A stretch of DNA of 64,000 bases, from IMG/VR virus record IMGVR_UViG_3300037246_000452, positions 25,219 through 89,218 of that record; one strand, written 5' to 3'. This document shows positions 4,564 to 64,000 of the stretch, piece after piece (the stretch's first letter is position 1; each line of letters starts with the position of its first letter). The position numbers and the translations under genes are program-made. This DNA comes from a virus. Below the pieces are notes generated by a model, which worked only from the letters and a program-made list of their open reading frames with translations, searched no databases and was not told the origin of the DNA.

Positions 4564-6054
4564 CTTCCGCCTCTCCTGTTGATATGCTTTATTCTGGTTT
4601 TCTTAGGTACATGATTTCGGTTCTGTTTCTTAACCTTAGTCGTTGAGGTCTTGCACTTTCTTACAAACTTATCATGCCTTTCCTCGGCCTCAAACTCCCT
4701 CATCATTCTATCGAATCCATTTGAACCGTACATCTAATACTCCTTCGCTGCATTGTATAGCTTATCTAATAGTCGCATCAGCTCTTGCCTTTTTTCTCTC
4801 CCTTCGCTACAGAGGTGAATCCCGTTACAATCTTTCAGCCATGCCCCACAATCACTTTTTCTGATACTCTTTACCACTTCTAGCAACTGCTCCTTTGCCT
4901 CGTCTTCAGGCCTCACAGGGATGTATGTTTTACCGCAATCATCACATTGCTGCTCCTTACCCATCTGCTCCCCATCCCATACATGGCCGGCAGGGCATCC
5001 CGGGCACTGTACCATAAATGTTTCACTCCCGAGGGTGCCTACTACTGTCATTGAGGGTCGCCCACATCTGGTGTTATGATAATCTTCGGCATTCATACTG
5101 CTACCTCCTCAATTAAGTCCTTCATAGTAGTGCCATTAACTGTATGTTCAAAGTCTGATAACCTATTTAACAAACATAGTCTCTGGCAGTCCTCCTCCTT
5201 ATCCCCCTTCGATGGCATGTTCTCTGTAATAAGAGTCTGTATCTCTTCGATTCTGTTTTCTAATGAATGGATTAAGTCTGGTAGTTCCATTATACCAACC
5301 CCCTCGCGCCATGCTTTAGTACTTTGGGATTCATGGAGAATTTAAAGTCCCCAAATTCAAGGATGTCAGTGTGCATCAGATGTTCTACAAGCAACTTCTT
5401 TGTCGCCCGGATGTAAGGTCTTGATACCTCCTTACCTTTACTCAGGGTTACCTCAGTTACGGGCTCCTTCATTGTACCAATCCTCATAAAGATTCCTGTC
5501 TTTGGCTTCTTGTTTATCCCACTACTCTGAACCATTAATTCTAACATCTACTTTCTCCCTGTAGTGGTCATCAGTATTGTACCGTGACCATCAGTTAATG
5601 TTGTGACCACATGGCCGGGATAAATTACGTTTCTATTAGTATGGCGCCTCATATCCTTGGCCAGATTATTGAGATACTTCGTAAAATTTACTCTCAGCTT
5701 ATGCATCGCATGCCATCCCTGAATCTGAGCCCCATATTCTGAGGTATTCCTGAGCCAGCTTGTTACCCTCTGTATTCATTTCCAATTCCTCAATAGGATG
5801 TAGAGTACCGTCCGTCCCACCTGACCCTGCGTTGTATGTTGGGTCTTGCCATACTGGCTTGTCTCCATAAGATGACTCTTGCATGACTGAAATACTGTCT
5901 ATCCAAAACCCCTTCGGCTTGATCGTTACAGCACGTCTGTTCTTACCTACACTCTCCACTACCTGACAATTTCCTACTGTCTTCTTCGTGATACTCATTT
6001 CGCCCTCCATGGCTTTGGTTGTTGATTTGTTTTATTAATTTTTGATTATACGTA

Positions 6055-8626: not shown

Positions 8627-8800
8627 GGATTAAATGCAGTTAATTGCAATCTGGTACATTTTTATTGTACTGGTATATCTCCATCACTCCACGGTCCATC
8701 GTCATCATCGTTACCTTTAAACCATACCATTCCTGCTATAAATAATGCTATCAGTACTGCGTGTAATACCCTTGTCTGTAGTTCGTCCATACCTTCCTCC

Positions 8801-9019
8801 TTAGTTATAATACTCGTTCCATGTCCTTGCCTTAATACGCCTCACGACTACTTTACAAAAATCACAGTTAGCTTCTGCGGGGCATAAGTCTGCCGGGTCT
8901 ACATGTACTATCTTAAAACCCGCTGTCTTACAAATATTACCATGAGTTACCTCAACCACTTTGGCCTCTTTCTTATCGGGGTCATACGTTACCAAGTTCA
9001 CCTTCCTTCTCATACCCAT
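8801..9019 (-). CDS. small Cys-containing protein, paralog of 63335..63559 (start revised to 9019)
   Basis: SD AGGAGG then ATG at 9019; shares RRKVNLVTYDP and VHVDPADLCPAEANCDFCK with 63335..63559. Confidence 0.75.
   Translation of the reverse strand: MGMRRKVNLVTYDPDKKEAKVVEVTHGNICKTAGFKIVHVDPADLCPAEANCDFCKVVVRRIKARTWNEYYN
8851..8910. repeat. 60-bp perfect direct repeat, copy 1 (copy 2 at 63391-63450)
   Basis: ctttacaaaaatcacagttagcttctgcggggcataagtctgccgggtctacatgtacta is identical at both loci. Confidence 0.95.
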
Positions 9020-9048
9020 AACTTCCTCCTTATGCAATTAAGTGCAAC

Positions 9049-11010
9049 CTATTCATCCTCACCCTCTTCCATGTCCTCTACTTCCGCTGCTTTCATGTTG
9101 TCCTTCTTAACCATCTCTATTACTGAGTTCGGTATCTGAGATGGGTTTAGCTTATGCCTTATCCATAGCTCAGTCCTCATCGTAAGTCCATATACAACAC
9201 CGGCCACAGCATCGGCCACATCGTTACTACCGTTTGGTGGATGATCTATCTTTCCGGTCTTAGGGTCTTTCTCAAGAGAGACAAATTCCTTCCGTAGCTT
9301 ATCATGCCGGGGGATTATTAACCTTCTATCATAGAGTGCTGTCTTCGTCATATAGTAAGGCGCTGACGGTACTGAATCAATCGATTGCTGGCCGGTTATG
9401 AATCCCTTCTGTCTGAGTATTTGCTGAGAGTCCCTAGACTGGTACTGGTCAAAGCTTACCCACTGGATATTGAGTCCGAGTTGTTTCAGTTTATACAGCA
9501 TAGCCCTGATCTTTCCGAATATAATCTCACCGTTCTTTGGTGGACTTACCTCCAGAGTGCCATCCAAATGTATCTCTGGCAGTATCTCTTCAACATCCCC
9601 TCGATCTATATTCACAAACCTCTTTACATGGCCTATAGCTATACCCGCACTGTCTCCTGTCACTGCAAGGTCGATATGCACCCAGCGAGGCTCATCAGGT
9701 CTTACAAACATATCTGGGAGCAGACTTAGCTTGACGTTCTTGAAGTCCACCTTCTCATTATTAAAGATGGAATATATCTCATCTGACATGGCCTCACTAA
9801 CAGCTTCAGTCTCCAGTATAAACGGATGCCTTGCAAGGGTGGATACTCCCGCAATCTCTCGAAGGGCATCAATAATGTCTGTCTCAAATTCGGGCTTGAA
9901 CTCTATCGGAATATCCTTGACTAACTCCGCGTCATCCTCATGTACTTCCTCCCCTTCCTCAAGCATTCTGGGCTTTCTGGCATCATCTCCTATAAATACT
10001 CTAAACCATATCCCTAGAAAGTCATCTGGCTTAATATCCCACACTCTTTTATCATAAACGTATATCTGGGATGTCCCCTTCTCAGCTACTTCCTTATCCC
10101 TCTCCGCCTCTTTTATGTCTGTGAACTGTCCCGGGTACCTCTTCGATGAGACTAGACAAAGGATGCCGGGGAGTTTACCTGCCTTCAGGAAACGTGACTT
10201 CCTTCTACGTGCAATGGAGTTATACACTGCTACGGCCTGATCATATGTTCCTCCATCAACACTTGCCTTCGAGTTCTCCGTTACTGACATGTAGTTCAGT
10301 TCATCTATCAGTCCCCCGATAACATTCTGTCCAATGGCTGCTGAGTCCGAACCTGATACAGGCTTGACTATAATTCTATTCGGAAACCTCATCTCTGACT
10401 CCAGATTCCTGTCGAAGGGAAACTCATTCTGGAAATAAGGACTCTTCTGAATCATATCCTTGAACCTCATGAAGTCAACCCCCTTAGCCAGTGCTGCCGT
10501 GATACTCTGGAATATAAACTCAATCTCGTGCGATGAGTCCAGCCCAAACTCTGCGTGGGGGTTCCTCATACAAGACAACAGGTACACCTGATAAGCATTG
10601 AGGTATATTGCTATTGTAGTTTTAGCTGACCCGATTCCGCCAGTAAGTACTACCTCTATATACTTACCCGAACTCATCTCCTCAATATAATCCATTACAA
10701 TAGGATACACTTCGTTACCTTTGTTCAGAAAGTAAGGGTCTTCTACAAACTGCCTTACTGATACAGGTTGCGTTCTCCATTTGATGTTCTTCTTCATATG
10801 AGCAAACGTATTATTCCCTGCATGTAGGCCGGCCAGATCAAGTACAACACTCTTGAAGAACTTCTCCCTCAGTGCTGGCTTGCCTATCTCCATGCCCACT
10901 TTATATACAGCCTCACCTCTATCTCCCCCTAACGCTTCTATCAGGAATTCCTTTGCATGGGTCTCACTTACTTTCTTAGTTAACATCGATTGGCTCCTCC
11001 AACTTCCCAT
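9049..11010 (-). CDS. terL: terminase large subunit
   Basis: Walker A-like GGIGSAKT, Walker B GLIDE, motif III LVSS, RNase H-like nuclease HIDLA...FDQYQS...DHP..GSNDVADA. Confidence 0.9.
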   Translation of the reverse strand: MGSWRSQSMLTKKVSETHAKEFLIEALGGDRGEAVYKVGMEIGKPALREKFFKSVVLDLAGLHAGNNTFAHMKKNIKWRTQPVSVRQFVEDPYFLNKGNEVYPIVMDYIEEMSSGKYIEVVLTGGIGSAKTTIAIYLNAYQVYLLSCMRNPHAEFGLDSSHEIEFIFQSITAALAKGVDFMRFKDMIQKSPYFQNEFPFDRNLESEMRFPNRIIVKPVSGSDSAAIGQNVIGGLIDELNYMSVTENSKASVDGGTYDQAVAVYNSIARRRKSRFLKAGKLPGILCLVSSKRYPGQFTDIKEAERDKEVAEKGTSQIYVYDKRVWDIKPDDFLGIWFRVFIGDDARKPRMLEEGEEVHEDDAELVKDIPIEFKPEFETDIIDALREIAGVSTLARHPFILETEAVSEAMSDEIYSIFNNEKVDFKNVKLSLLPDMFVRPDEPRWVHIDLAVTGDSAGIAIGHVKRFVNIDRGDVEEILPEIHLDGTLEVSPPKNGEIIFGKIRAMLYKLKQLGLNIQWVSFDQYQSRDSQQILRQKGFITGQQSIDSVPSAPYYMTKTALYDRRLIIPRHDKLRKEFVSLEKDPKTGKIDHPPNGSNDVADAVAGVVYGLTMRTELWIRHKLNPSQIPNSVIEMVKKDNMKAAEVEDMEEGEDE

Positions 11011-11623
11011 ACTTAAAAATTTCTATAACTTTCTGTGTAGCTATGGCCAGTTGTTCATTATCTTCCTTTGACTCCACATGGAGCTGTTGTACTTCGGTGT
11101 CCGTCATAGAGAACGACCCTATCAGATGTTTCTGTATTGGCGCCACCTTCTTAAGTAATCCCAGATCAAACTGGAGGTCCGAAAGCTGATTTAGTAAGTC
11201 CTTCATAAGACCCATCTCTTTCCGCATAGCATCAAATAGCAGGGGGGCTCCGTGTTCCTTATTGTACAGCTTCTGCATCCTCATCATCTGCATCTCTACA
11301 AGCTCCGTGAGAGCCGTATGGGCATCTATCCTCTTATCTACAGGTGTGAAGATGGTCAGGGTGTCTACCTTGTCCTCTGTGCCCTTTGTGTCGCTTGGAA
11401 TCAGTACCTTACTATGCAAGTGAGGTGTGATTTTATCTTTCTTATACCTGACAAGCTGCTTCTGGAGTGTCCCCGGCTTCATATCAGTCAGTAACTTCCA
11501 CTCTTCTTGTATCTTCGCTACTACTTTGGGCGCACTGGTGTTTTTGATAAGCATAGACTCGATGATATCTAGCTTAGCCTGCCCCAGCCCTGTGAGTGTC
11601 TTGTACTGCCTTACTACAGCCAT
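10976..11623 (-). CDS. putative terminase small subunit
   Basis: Immediately upstream of and overlapping terL; helical 215-aa protein; positional inference only. Confidence 0.45.
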   Translation of the reverse strand: MAVVRQYKTLTGLGQAKLDIIESMLIKNTSAPKVVAKIQEEWKLLTDMKPGTLQKQLVRYKKDKITPHLHSKVLIPSDTKGTEDKVDTLTIFTPVDKRIDAHTALTELVEMQMMRMQKLYNKEHGAPLLFDAMRKEMGLMKDLLNQLSDLQFDLGLLKKVAPIQKHLIGSFSMTDTEVQQLHVESKEDNEQLAIATQKVIEIFKYGKLEEPIDVN

Positions 11624-61584: not shown

Positions 61585-62024
61585 GGCACTTGACCCTGAC
61601 CCGTCAGCTGATTAATCTTATTCGTTGCCTTGTAGAACTCAATCGGATATGTCCTCGCGAATCTAGCTGCCATACCCTCATCAAATTTAGGTTCAACGCT
61701 ACCTAACACCAGTGTCTCTATCCGAATTACAATCTCATTATGGGTATCTCCATCTTCCACGCCCCCCAACATCGCCTTAAATCCCTTAATGTTCTCAGAC
61801 TTTGACTTACTTGCTATGGCTTCAATCATTGCCATTAGCTGATTCGTATTTGATACTGCGTCCTGTGCTATTGCGAACTCGTTCCCTGTTAGTCCCCTGA
61901 CTATGAGTTTAGCATCTTCCTTACTGCCCTCGAACCATTCTGCCATATCAGGAACCAGAACCTCCCCCTCGCGGGGGGAGAATTCTGAGCTCATGAATTT
62001 GATGGCGTCAAACTTTTTAGCCAT
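61542..62024 (-). CDS. tail assembly chaperone (gpG-like)
   Basis: Between tail tube and TMP; ends just after a slippery site. Confidence 0.75.
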   Translation of the reverse strand: MAKKFDAIKFMSSEFSPREGEVLVPDMAEWFEGSKEDAKLIVRGLTGNEFAIAQDAVSNTNQLMAMIEAIASKSKSENIKGFKAMLGGVEDGDTHNEIVIRIETLVLGSVEPKFDEGMAARFARTYPIEFYKATNKINQLTGQGQVPGKRKSSGKKVKSS

Positions 62025-63019
62025 TATGTGAGAACCTCAGTACCTTCTTCACTGGCAGATATCGTGCATTCCGCATTGAGGACTCCATCAGCCGGCCATG
62101 ATCTTGAAATACCGAACTTACCTTGGACAGGCAAATGCGGAGTATCATACTTATTCGGGAAGAACTTAAACCACAAGAGCATTCCCTTAAGCTTAACAAC
62201 TGTGTCCGATAGGCCGTCCTTCAACTTGGCATTGAACCCACCCTGACCAATAGACTCAGATGAGGCTCCTACTGCCTTACCATATATCTGCTCAGAAGAA
62301 ACTGAGTGTGTGACTTCAGGCGCCTTGAAGTTGGTTACATTCACAAGGTCGGTGAAGATAGGGTCATAAACCTTACCAAAGACCTGCTTAGGTATAACGC
62401 CTGTGTGGATTTTAGAAAGTGCAATGTCAAATACAACATTACCGTTGGCCATATCCTCACTGAATGTTGGATAATCGTACCTTTCCTGATGCTGATTAGG
62501 GGTATCAAATATCTCATCGGCGCTGATAGGAGCTGCCACATTACCTTTCGTGATAACTTGCGCTATCTCTATGGAGTCTGTCGGGATAAGAGGTGGTCCA
62601 CCATTTCCGTCTCTTGTAGTGCTGAGAGATACACCCTCTGTACCCGTTACAACCGCTATGGCCTGAGCGTTGTCTACAGTAATACTATTTACCATGTAGT
62701 AATCAGCCGTGGATGCCCTTGTTATCCCATCACCTGTACTTGCCCCTACAGTCTCTTTTACTCCCGCCTGATAGGCTGTAGCAGCTGCCACATCTACCTG
62801 ATCATTGGTGAGTCCAACCTCAGGTATTACTGCTCCACCTGTAATAAGACCATCAGGCCTAATATCAGGTTCCTTTCCTGCCACATTAGACAGTAGGGAT
62901 GCGGCTGTTTCAAATGTCAGCTGATCTCCTGAATCACTGAGAGCTGCCATCGCCTTAAGCGTCTGACCATTCTCGATTTGGATTTTGGCTTTTGAGCCAG
63001 TATTTATTTGTCCACTCAT
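62024..63019 (-). CDS. major tail (tube) protein
   Basis: 331 aa, upstream of chaperone and TMP; P E..HSVSS.Q.YG..WFKFFP. Confidence 0.65.
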   Translation of the reverse strand: MSGQINTGSKAKIQIENGQTLKAMAALSDSGDQLTFETAASLLSNVAGKEPDIRPDGLITGGAVIPEVGLTNDQVDVAAATAYQAGVKETVGASTGDGITRASTADYYMVNSITVDNAQAIAVVTGTEGVSLSTTRDGNGGPPLIPTDSIEIAQVITKGNVAAPISADEIFDTPNQHQERYDYPTFSEDMANGNVVFDIALSKIHTGVIPKQVFGKVYDPIFTDLVNVTNFKAPEVTHSVSSEQIYGKAVGASSESIGQGGFNAKLKDGLSDTVVKLKGMLLWFKFFPNKYDTPHLPVQGKFGISRSWPADGVLNAECTISASEEGTEVLT

Positions 63020-63075
63020 TTTCTTATCCCCCTTTTGAAATTAATTTTAAACTAACCGTCTTCAACCCCACCCTC

Positions 63076-63324
63076 TTAAGCAACCATCTTCATACTGCTG
63101 TTCTTAACTCCTGCTATATCCCTGAGGGCATTAATAATGTCACGATCAAAATCTAATCGGAATTCCACTGGAACTTGTATAACCAGCCCTGTGTCTCTTA
63201 GAAGTGCATACTCCTTTTTGTTAAGTATTCTTGGCTGCCTAGCCTCATCACCTATAAATACACTAAACCGATCTCCTAAGGAGCCATCGGGTTTAGTGTT
63301 CCATACTCTCGCACCAACCTCCAT
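63076..63324 (-). CDS. stand-alone homolog of a TerL internal segment
   Basis: 37 of 68 residues identical, no gaps, to TerL residues about 322-389; SD GAGGAGG. Confidence 0.8.
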   Translation of the reverse strand: MEVGARVWNTKPDGSLGDRFSVFIGDEARQPRILNKKEYALLRDTGLVIQVPVEFRLDFDRDIINALRDIAGVKNSSMKMVA

Positions 63325-63334
63325 AATCTCCTCC

Positions 63335-63559
63335 TCAGTACCCTTTATAGTATTCGTTCAAGGTTCTACTCCTCACCCTACGCATCACTCCTTTACAAAA
63401 ATCACAGTTAGCTTCTGCGGGGCATAAGTCTGCCGGGTCTACATGTACTAACATAAAGCCCATCGCCTTATCAAAAGTACCATGATGCACCTCGATCACC
63501 CCGGCCTCTTTCTTAATCGGGTCATACGTCACCAAGTTAACCTTCCTTCTCGTATCCAT
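63335..63559 (-). CDS. paralog of 8801..9019
   Basis: Shared protein motifs, 60 identical bp, and shared SD context AGGAGGAAGTTATG. Confidence 0.8.
   Translation of the reverse strand: MDTRRKVNLVTYDPIKKEAGVIEVHHGTFDKAMGFMLVHVDPADLCPAEANCDFCKGVMRRVRSRTLNEYYKGY
63391..63450. repeat. 60-bp perfect direct repeat, copy 2
   Basis: Identical to 8851-8910. Confidence 0.95.
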
Positions 63560-64000
63560 AACTTCCTCCTATACATTTGAAATTAATTTCAAATTACTTA
63601 GATTTAGATTCCTTGGTCTCAATGACCCCCTCTTCCTTTAATACCTTCAGGAACGCTGTGGTCACTAGGTAACTCTTACCCTTGGTAAACGTCTGCTTAC
63701 CTTTACCCTCGCCCTGTGGCTCCCCACAGTAATTCTTTTTAAACTTTGCTGTCAGTGATACTCCCATAATACCCTCCCTTATTTATTCTTCTGTTACATT
63801 ATCCAACGGAACATATATCTTATACCGTTGTACGTAGGCAAGCACCTCAATAAAATGTGCTTTGTCTCCCTTCTTGGCCGGCTTCTTCTTAATTGCCAAA
63901 TTCACCGGCTGCTCTAAAACGAAGCCCCACTCAATATAACCTGATGCTTCCCGGGGAGTCCTTATAGCTCTTCGTACCTTATCCAAGATTATAGTCGTCT

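Follow-up and report, generated by a model that had tools for sequence, protein, structure and literature searches.

A free-standing copy of the terminase lid subdomain on a palindrome-bounded accessory cassette of an uncultured marine phage

The DNA considered here (the window, 64,000 nucleotides) comprises bases 25219-89218 of the IMG/VR virus record IMGVR_UViG_3300037246_000452, an 89,218-bp contig with a 127-bp terminal repeat that gives a circular map. The source is an uncultured siphovirus-like phage of 89 kb from marine sediment, nearly all of whose genes lie on the minus strand. Near one end of the window is a small gene, called mini-terL below (its product being the mini-protein), which reproduces an internal segment, the lid subdomain, of the phage's own large terminase subunit (TerL). 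Positions are those of the window unless stated otherwise, and the elements that have to be distinguished first are the following.

63076..63324, minus strand: mini-terL, an open reading frame (ORF) of 82 amino acids (aa) composed of the leader MEVGA, the lid copy and the 9-aa tail KNSSMKMVA
63106..63309, minus strand: lid-homologous core, mini residues 6-73 equivalent to TerL 322-389, delimited by BLASTP and nucleotide comparison
63328..63334, minus strand: Shine-Dalgarno (SD) sequence GGAGGAG of mini-terL, in an AGGAGG-N5-ATG arrangement
9049..11010, minus strand: terL, coding for the resident large terminase of 653 aa, assigned by fold matches, PHROG 2 and the annotations of GenBank homologues
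9844..10047, minus strand: lid subdomain of TerL, residues 322-389, the segment of the parental type, placed by the ranges of structure alignments

The 82-aa free-standing gene with its own SD sequence, start and stop, as described in the initial annotation, was confirmed at 63076-63324 on the minus strand, the stop codon being TAA. The ungapped match to about residues 322-389 that had been claimed with it was reproduced by BLASTP against the 653-aa TerL (37/68 identical, 49/68 positives, 0 gaps, E 4e-22), mini residues 6-73 pairing with TerL 322-389. The nucleotide homology starts abruptly at the codon of R322 and ends at that of V389, with 65% identity inside the lid core and about 25-35% in the flanks. 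Mini-like sequence is present at only two places in the 89,218-bp genome, namely mini-terL and terL, and the mini-protein is found on 2 contigs in the public protein collection. Direct inspection also bore out the claimed absence of the Walker A, Walker B and nuclease residues: the mini sequence begins downstream of the TerL motifs GGIGSAKT, GGLIDELN and LVSS, none of which it contains, and TerL codons 390-634 are deleted from it, the nuclease domains aligning to TerL 393-610. Because the ATPase and nuclease motifs are missing, the mini-gene is homologous to the functional TerL family but is no member of it. An exon of a split terL in the source phage is ruled out, TerL being intact and the flanks of the mini-gene being X' (a small ORF described below) and the gene at the tail-tube position; read-through or fusion of X' and mini-terL is likewise ruled out by their different frames and the 10-nt gap between them.

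TerL itself is identified by an AlphaFold2 model (pLDDT 84.1) that matches the folds of the HK97, D6E, Sf6, T4 and P74-26 terminases, by its match to PHROG 2, and by its GenBank homologues, most of which are annotated as terminase large subunit; the comparison of a TerL profile with PDB sequences gave one match, a spurious P-loop one. The family of this TerL is rich in inteins, with insertions in the P-loop (GGIG followed by C...), in Walker B (...N followed by CLDELNYM) and near the C-terminal DHPP motif (P0009, P0004, P0015), and many of its homologues reach 900-1400 aa because of them.

The part of TerL that is copied can be defined from the TerL model. Generic RecA/DEAD-box domains (2OXC, 3FMO, 8V85) align to residues 83-321/324 only, the ATPase-domain crystal structures of P74-26 TerL (7KS4, 4ZNI) and T4 gp17 (2O0H) align to residues 82-391/393 (Z 18.4, root-mean-square deviation 2.6-3.2 Å, 221 residues), and isolated nuclease domains (G20c, P74-26, RB49, SPP1) align from 393-395 onward. 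Since RecA folds end at about 321-324 and ATPase domains at about 391-393, the mini represents exactly the terminase-specific C-terminal lid subdomain, and its boundaries, as judged from the model, are the structural ones. The source region had been placed by the initial annotation between ATPase motif III and the nuclease domain, as a lid/linker region, which was borne out, its edges now being those of the lid. By the same alignment ranges, both illegitimate joints described below fall within a few residues of structural boundaries. In the model, the lid segment follows the last core strand (316-321) and consists of a small sheet and helices ending in the conserved RDIAGV motif. The lid of P74-26 TerL caps the active site, and its R235 is important for contacts between adjacent ATPase subunits (PMC5389665). 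Compared with the known lids (P74-26 TerL 4ZNI/4ZNL/7KS4; T4 gp17 2O0H), the mini is homologous in sequence, represents the same stretch, from where the RecA core stops to where the ATPase domain does, and keeps the conserved F/G/P/R/F/D/RDIAG columns. Unlike them, it stands alone as a protein of 82 aa that has neither the RecA core with P-loop and Walker B nor the nuclease domain; three residues that full-length TerLs conserve (columns 9, 10 and 15 of the lid alignment) are lost, and a 5-aa foreign leader and a decayed tail are present at its ends.

What surrounds the lid copy reveals more than the simple copy of a TerL segment proposed initially: the copying of an internal segment stood, and the gene is in addition a chimera with a traceable recombination history, located on an accessory cassette bounded by palindromes. 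The following features are involved.

63052..63105, minus strand: decayed relic of the 3' end of terL, recognised by local and global alignment, with the relic terL stop TAG at 63052-63054
63335..63559, minus strand: X', 74 aa, a paralogue of X (repeat family D2, 226 nt at 81%; 72% aa identity)
8801..9019, minus strand: gene X, 72 aa from the ATG at 9019, immediately downstream of terL
8662..8790, minus strand: orf42, a small hydrophobic ORF after X, whose SD/start region is the counterpart of the mini-gene start
63578..63591, no strand: left palindrome copy (TGAAATTAATTTCA), bounding the cassette
63036..63049, no strand: right palindrome copy, 2 nt after the relic terL stop
9033..9046, no strand: palindrome between the terL stop and X, found by motif count
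63034..63575, no strand: 542-bp cassette (X', mini-terL and one palindrome), skipped in a contig of a related phage

At the 3' side, the VKNSSMK of the mini tail corresponds to TerL 634-640 (VKKDNMK), the TAA stop of the mini-gene sits opposite a TerL GAA codon (E648), and the 22 nt past that stop (GAGGGTGGGGTTGAA...TAG) represent the last codons of terL with its TAG stop, GAGGGTGGGGTTGAA itself matching the last five codons. The local alignment of the relic to the terL end scores 30, against means of 16.6-19.7 for shuffled sequences (16.6 +/- 2.6 in one set), and the 17-mer AAGAGGGTGAGGATGAA, allowing up to 2 mismatches, occurs only at the terL end and in the relic. In the relic and in terL itself, whose stop is at 9049-9051 and whose palindrome is at 9033-9046, the stop and the palindrome are separated by 2 nt alike. 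The indels in the relic tail are all multiples of three, and it has acquired one nonsense codon (GAA to TAA). At the 5' side, the junction reads X' stop, 10 nt forming the SD spacer, and ATGGA, with the same spacing as, and about 75% identity to, the junction between the X stop and the orf42 start. The cassette can thus be read as a series of blocks: palindrome, X', orf42-type start, TerL 322-389, in-frame deletion of 390-634, relic of TerL 635-653, terL stop, palindrome. The order at the source locus is the 3' part of terL, palindrome, X and orf42, of which the cassette is a cyclic permutation.

The mini-gene is thus very probably a chimera of this anatomy and origin. On the simplest account, a circle or a tandem duplication arose at the terL-palindrome-X-orf42 locus, the closure being an illegitimate joint of the orf42 start to terL codon 322 (the circle itself is inferred); it would then have been opened or integrated by palindrome-by-palindrome recombination, and a later in-frame deletion of codons 390-634 would have removed the linker and the whole nuclease domain. 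The divergence of the two halves speaks against a single simple duplication as a sufficient account. The identity at third codon positions is 46% between the lid core and terL and 65% between X and X' outside their identical core, i.e. the lid core is about twice as diverged as X/X' at synonymous sites, which suggests that one half of the cassette differs in age from the other. Furthermore, the non-coding relic is locally better conserved than the third positions of the lid. Patchy gene conversion between the loci could explain both the mismatch in divergence and the better-kept relic, and later replacement of the resident TerL segment is another possible explanation. A recent donor TerL was sought and none was found, the best identity of the mini to any TerL being 58% as against about 54% to the resident one.

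The bounding motif, the 14-bp AT-rich palindrome TGMAATTAATTKCA, occurs at 27 sites in the window where 0.11 are expected (e.g. 530, 8635, 9033, 21055, 43542, 63036 and 63578), mostly just upstream of SD sites or -35 boxes. Position 63033 is joined to 63576 in a 151-nt contig (depth 2) of run X2, a marine metagenome that belongs to another study; the 13 letters at the joint fit both sides and are those of the palindrome, and the flanks are about 95% identical. Where distant relatives have the gene at the tube position (47-54% identity), neither mini nor X lies within 6 kb of it, and in L003, the closest of them, a homologue of the small upstream ORF p57 abuts the tube-position gene with no insert. 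Because the X2 contig skips the cassette and the distant relatives are without it, we regard the 542-bp unit between the neck genes and the tube-position gene as an accessory gain/loss cassette, the X2 evidence being thin but specific. In the source phage, the palindromes serve, if nothing else, to delimit accessory cassettes in recombination.

Modular shuffling mediated by PeSL motifs, together with mini-circles, is known in T4-type phages (Arbiol et al. 2010, PMC2839356; PMC4122927). The likeness to that system lies in a short repeated motif of regulatory type dispersed through the genome in 27 copies and flanking small accessory ORFs, in an indel between relatives with the joint inside the repeat, and in a gene order that fits a circular intermediate (inferred from the order of the blocks) re-integrated at another copy of the repeat. 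In contrast to PeSLs, the motif here is a 14-bp palindrome near SD sites or -35 boxes rather than a composite of promoter and terminator, and the genome that hosts it is that of a siphovirus-like 89-kb marine phage, not a T4-type one.

X' lies directly upstream of mini-terL, the two cassette genes being 10 nt apart with matched SD spacing. X and X' share 60 nt of perfect identity (8851-8910 and 63391-63450) encoding VHVDPADLCPAEANCDFCK, and the flanks of this core are only about 71% identical, with a synonymous divergence (dS) of 0.67-0.83; this suggests recent gene conversion between the loci or a constraint at the nucleotide level. Logan assemblies break at the X/X' repeat. X and X' are the sole members found of their family: no homologue of X was found near related terL loci, about 110 of which were covered, or elsewhere, and the ESM Atlas gave no lead for X'.

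Further genes define the setting of the cassette.

62024..63019, minus strand: 331-aa gene at the tail-tube position (phrog_30644), directly downstream of the cassette
63594..63767, minus strand: p57, a small ORF upstream of the cassette, whose homologue directly precedes the tube-position gene in L003

The local gene order is neck (phrog_26), two small ORFs, X', mini-terL, the 331-aa gene, a 160-aa gene and the tape measure; the mini-gene, with its optimal SD, stands within a late structural operon. The initial annotation had put it upstream of the tail tube gene; the 331-aa gene is indeed directly downstream, the name "tail tube" being assigned by position only. The stated distance of 53 kb from terL holds in window coordinates, and the circular map gives another arc of about 35 kb. 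No sigma-70-like promoter or terminator-like site was seen on the coding strand inside the cassette or at its ends. The segment 62000-64000 had no blastn match in GenBank phages; Pfam gave nothing for the mini, X, X', TerL or the neighbours, and the PHROGs gave nothing for the mini or X'. In L003, a 77-kb relative, the 69-aa ORF at 5802-6011 upstream of the tube-position gene resembles p57, and the p57 type is a small conserved gene between the neck genes and the tube-position gene. The terL gene is not adjacent to the portal gene (contig positions 6818-8626), which is directly preceded by a DNA polymerase gene (8633-11023); it lies about 25 kb from the portal, among genes of early/middle type.

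The spread of lid-only genes was followed in several collections. A tblastn search with the mini against 50,697 GenBank phage records matched 72 records at one place each, which is TerL (annotated as terminase large subunit in most and as hypothetical protein in the rest), and one match each was also the result for 48 IMG/VR relatives chosen by TerL, of which 13 are at least 90% complete. Among tractable homologues, the terminases of the Stenotrophomonas DLP_5/Summit and Vibrio SIO-2-like type have 50-54% identity in the lid segment. IMG/VR scans with mini, X', P0104 (see below) and TerL peptides and with a degenerate DNA pattern of the X core returned only the phage's own record; a word-indexed search with the mini alone returned itself only, and the protein collection, JGI included, yielded no diverged relatives of mini, X or P0104. 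Among 1.84 billion cluster representatives searched exhaustively with phmmer, 328 were hit at E<=1e-3, nearly all of TerL length and matched at the same internal position, many of them with inteins. Most of the short hits continue into TerL sequence past IAGV, i.e. they are contig-end fragments, with two exceptions. P0104, of 76 aa (MIIRAETW...DIAGIAYKGE), is present on 5 Logan contigs, the longest of 93,672 bp; it ends 5 residues after IAGI and has Trp at position 8, as does the mini. P0157, of 83 aa and from an ENA contig of 1,706 bp, ends in DIAGIKR and has boundaries in common with the mini.

Three other proteins, P0092 (285 aa), P0133 (326 aa) and P0093 (376 aa), are N-terminal halves of TerL that end a few unrelated residues past IAGV, where the lid homology of the mini also ends. 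The terL genes concerned may be split or contain introns, or the IAGV motif may mark a hot spot where the ATPase domain gives way to the nuclease.

Selection on a folded subdomain, which the initial annotation proposed, gains indirect support from several sides. The ends of the mini are domain-precise, and two other short proteins share them. The 68 lid codons contain 0 indels and 0 stops at 35% nucleotide divergence; nothing within the 204-nt lid core has the marks of a pseudogene, and the nonsense codon and the indels that make up the decay all lie beyond the lid, in the relic tail. Identity at codon positions 1, 2 and 3 is 69%, 79% and 46%, and the lid core has a non-synonymous divergence (dN) of 0.33-0.37 and a dS of 1.3-1.6, giving a pairwise dN/dS of 0.2-0.3. 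The invariant or near-invariant lid columns are all kept in the mini. Against a profile of 100 full-length TerLs it shows 4 rare residues, which is the median, and violates 3 of 29 conserved columns, as an ordinary TerL segment might; this fit would be compatible with strong constraint and with recent capture alike. The columns it breaks, 9, 10 and 15, lie at the N-terminal edge by the RecA core and are broken together in 0 of 138 TerL segments, and in P0104 these very columns are broken too, again with Thr at column 10, a coincidence of position with p of about 0.01. Rare residues are more numerous in P0104 and P0157 than in any TerL, which makes the two outliers. A tree in which the three short proteins are united has a likelihood above that of the free quick-search tree (p-AU, from the approximately unbiased test, 0.68).

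A number of points weigh against this interpretation. The pairwise dN/dS includes the TerL branch and cannot alone demonstrate selection on the mini-gene, and no homologues with usable diversity are available for a proper dN/dS. If the lid had been captured recently from an unsampled TerL, its TerL-like conservation would be uninformative on selection for a free protein. A tree that places the mini with the resident TerL survives the test as well, the 78-column tree consisting mostly of unsupported forks. The check for other stand-alone ORFs of the same TerL interval produced P0104 and P0157 and no second lid copy in the 72 GenBank phages or the 48 IMG/VR relatives, so that the family is extremely rare, three proteins among billions, and neither P0104 nor P0157 need be a free gene, since each could come from the middle of an interrupted terL. 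The cassette is dispensable, being absent from a close relative of about 95% identity that is known from one 151-nt contig of depth 2. Finally, the AlphaFold2 model of the mini alone, with three strands and a long helix as in the TerL model, is of low confidence (pLDDT 64.8, pTM 0.45), and a wide structure search with it (VIA-align) gave no match at Z>=5.

Weighing these observations, we consider it probable, to about two-thirds, that the lid ORF is or was selected as a free protein, which leaves about one-third for a neutral by-product. MicroProteins are small single-domain derivatives of multidomain proteins that act as dominant-negative regulators, a concept of eukaryotic biology. We tentatively favour, as a reading that falls somewhat short of probable, a selected lid mimic of this kind acting on a terminase ATPase. 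A free lid can act only by binding, and the partners to be expected would be the RecA core to which the lid belongs in TerL, at the face of the ATP site, and the adjacent subunit of the pentameric motor. It would be produced late, at the same time as the tail proteins, and would occupy the lid docking surface on a terminase ATPase domain. The assembly of the motor would thereby be tuned or poisoned, be it that of the phage itself or of a relative or satellite infecting the same cell. The likeness of the mini to microProteins is conceptual only: a domain-sized fragment of an oligomerising multidomain protein has become a gene of its own, with the interaction surface kept and the catalytic part gone.

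The alternative of a neutral by-product is less likely, though plausible. In this case the mini-gene would be debris of cassette shuffling, a partial terL copy minus the nuclease, kept open by shortness, recency or luck, and the selected part, if any, would be X'. The recombination scars and the decay (relic tail indels, the GAA-to-TAA nonsense codon, a stranded terL stop) agree with it, as do the absence of the cassette from the close relative and from all surveyed relatives and the low confidence of the isolated-fold prediction; moreover, no statistical difference separates the mini from a stretch of TerL that works, as expected of recent capture. Debris, however, would not be expected to have both illegitimate joints at domain boundaries, for which the chance is roughly (7/653)^2 if joints are random, nor an internal deletion in frame together with relic indels that are all multiples of three. 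Codon positions 1 and 2 are far better kept than position 3, and at such divergence 68 neutral codons would be expected to gather stops or frameshifts. The coincidence of the three broken columns, never broken together in the TerL segments, with those of P0104 (p about 0.01) and the like ends of the two other short proteins also argue against neutrality.

A wider version of the selected lid mimic appears rather doubtful. It would make the mini, P0104 and P0157 a small, horizontally mobile family of trans-acting poisons or modulators of the packaging motor, carried on repeat-bounded cassettes and used in phage/satellite competition, the lid alone docking on the ATPase domain and blocking either ring assembly or the lever movement of the lid; alternatively, the family may serve to blind terminase-sensing immunity.

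It is improbable that the cassette is a paired module, in which X would bind the TerL lid and X'/mini would be a self-contained copy of that pair, either with the mini titrating X-type proteins or with X' acting as a chaperone or regulator of the free lid. X-type genes do adjoin terminase sequence at both loci, and the 60-nt identical core encoding VHVDPADLCPAEANCDFCK and the matched SD spacing across the 10-nt gap may be taken in the same sense. This adjacency, however, is fully explained by the permutation or circle origin, with no need of a functional link, X homologues are present at 0 of about 110 related terL loci and none was found elsewhere, and X belongs to no recognisable family.

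That the free lid is an immune decoy, soaking up or blinding a TerL-recognising host sensor (Avs1-3-type STAND or other) and so shielding the real TerL from abortive defence, is very improbable, since the mini is missing the P-loop, Walker B and nuclease sites while the sensor in the Avs3-terminase structure (8DGC, among the structure matches of the TerL model) touches both active sites, which would make the lid alone a poor mimic, and since no host or defence system is linked to this uncultured marine-sediment phage. The shift of the mini loop 35-47, acidic in TerLs, to basic/hydrophobic would suit a decoy, and so would the location, accessory gain/loss cassettes being typical homes of counter-defence genes. 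Avs families recognise TerL and portal folds by direct binding (PMC13581612), and the binding of KpAvs2 to a TerL ATPase domain has been both predicted and shown; small TerL-like Ksap proteins, however, can activate rather than block Avs2 (PMC11564622).

In a narrow literature search, no paper was found that describes a gene of this sort, a copy of the lid alone on a cassette between palindromes, with a recombination history that can still be read. Whatever its function, the locus is an unusually clean record of gene making, in which a permuted copy, the in-frame deletion of a domain and integration between dispersed palindromes can all be read, and the palindrome-bounded cassettes represent an analogue of PeSL shuffling outside T4-like phages. 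Should the free lid prove to bind terminase, it would represent an inhibitor or regulator of the packaging motor that occurs in nature, has a gene of its own and is made from the motor's own lever, and it might serve as a probe for the subunit-subunit contacts of TerL. From this point of view, it would also provide an example of phages turning domain-sized debris of essential genes into new small proteins.

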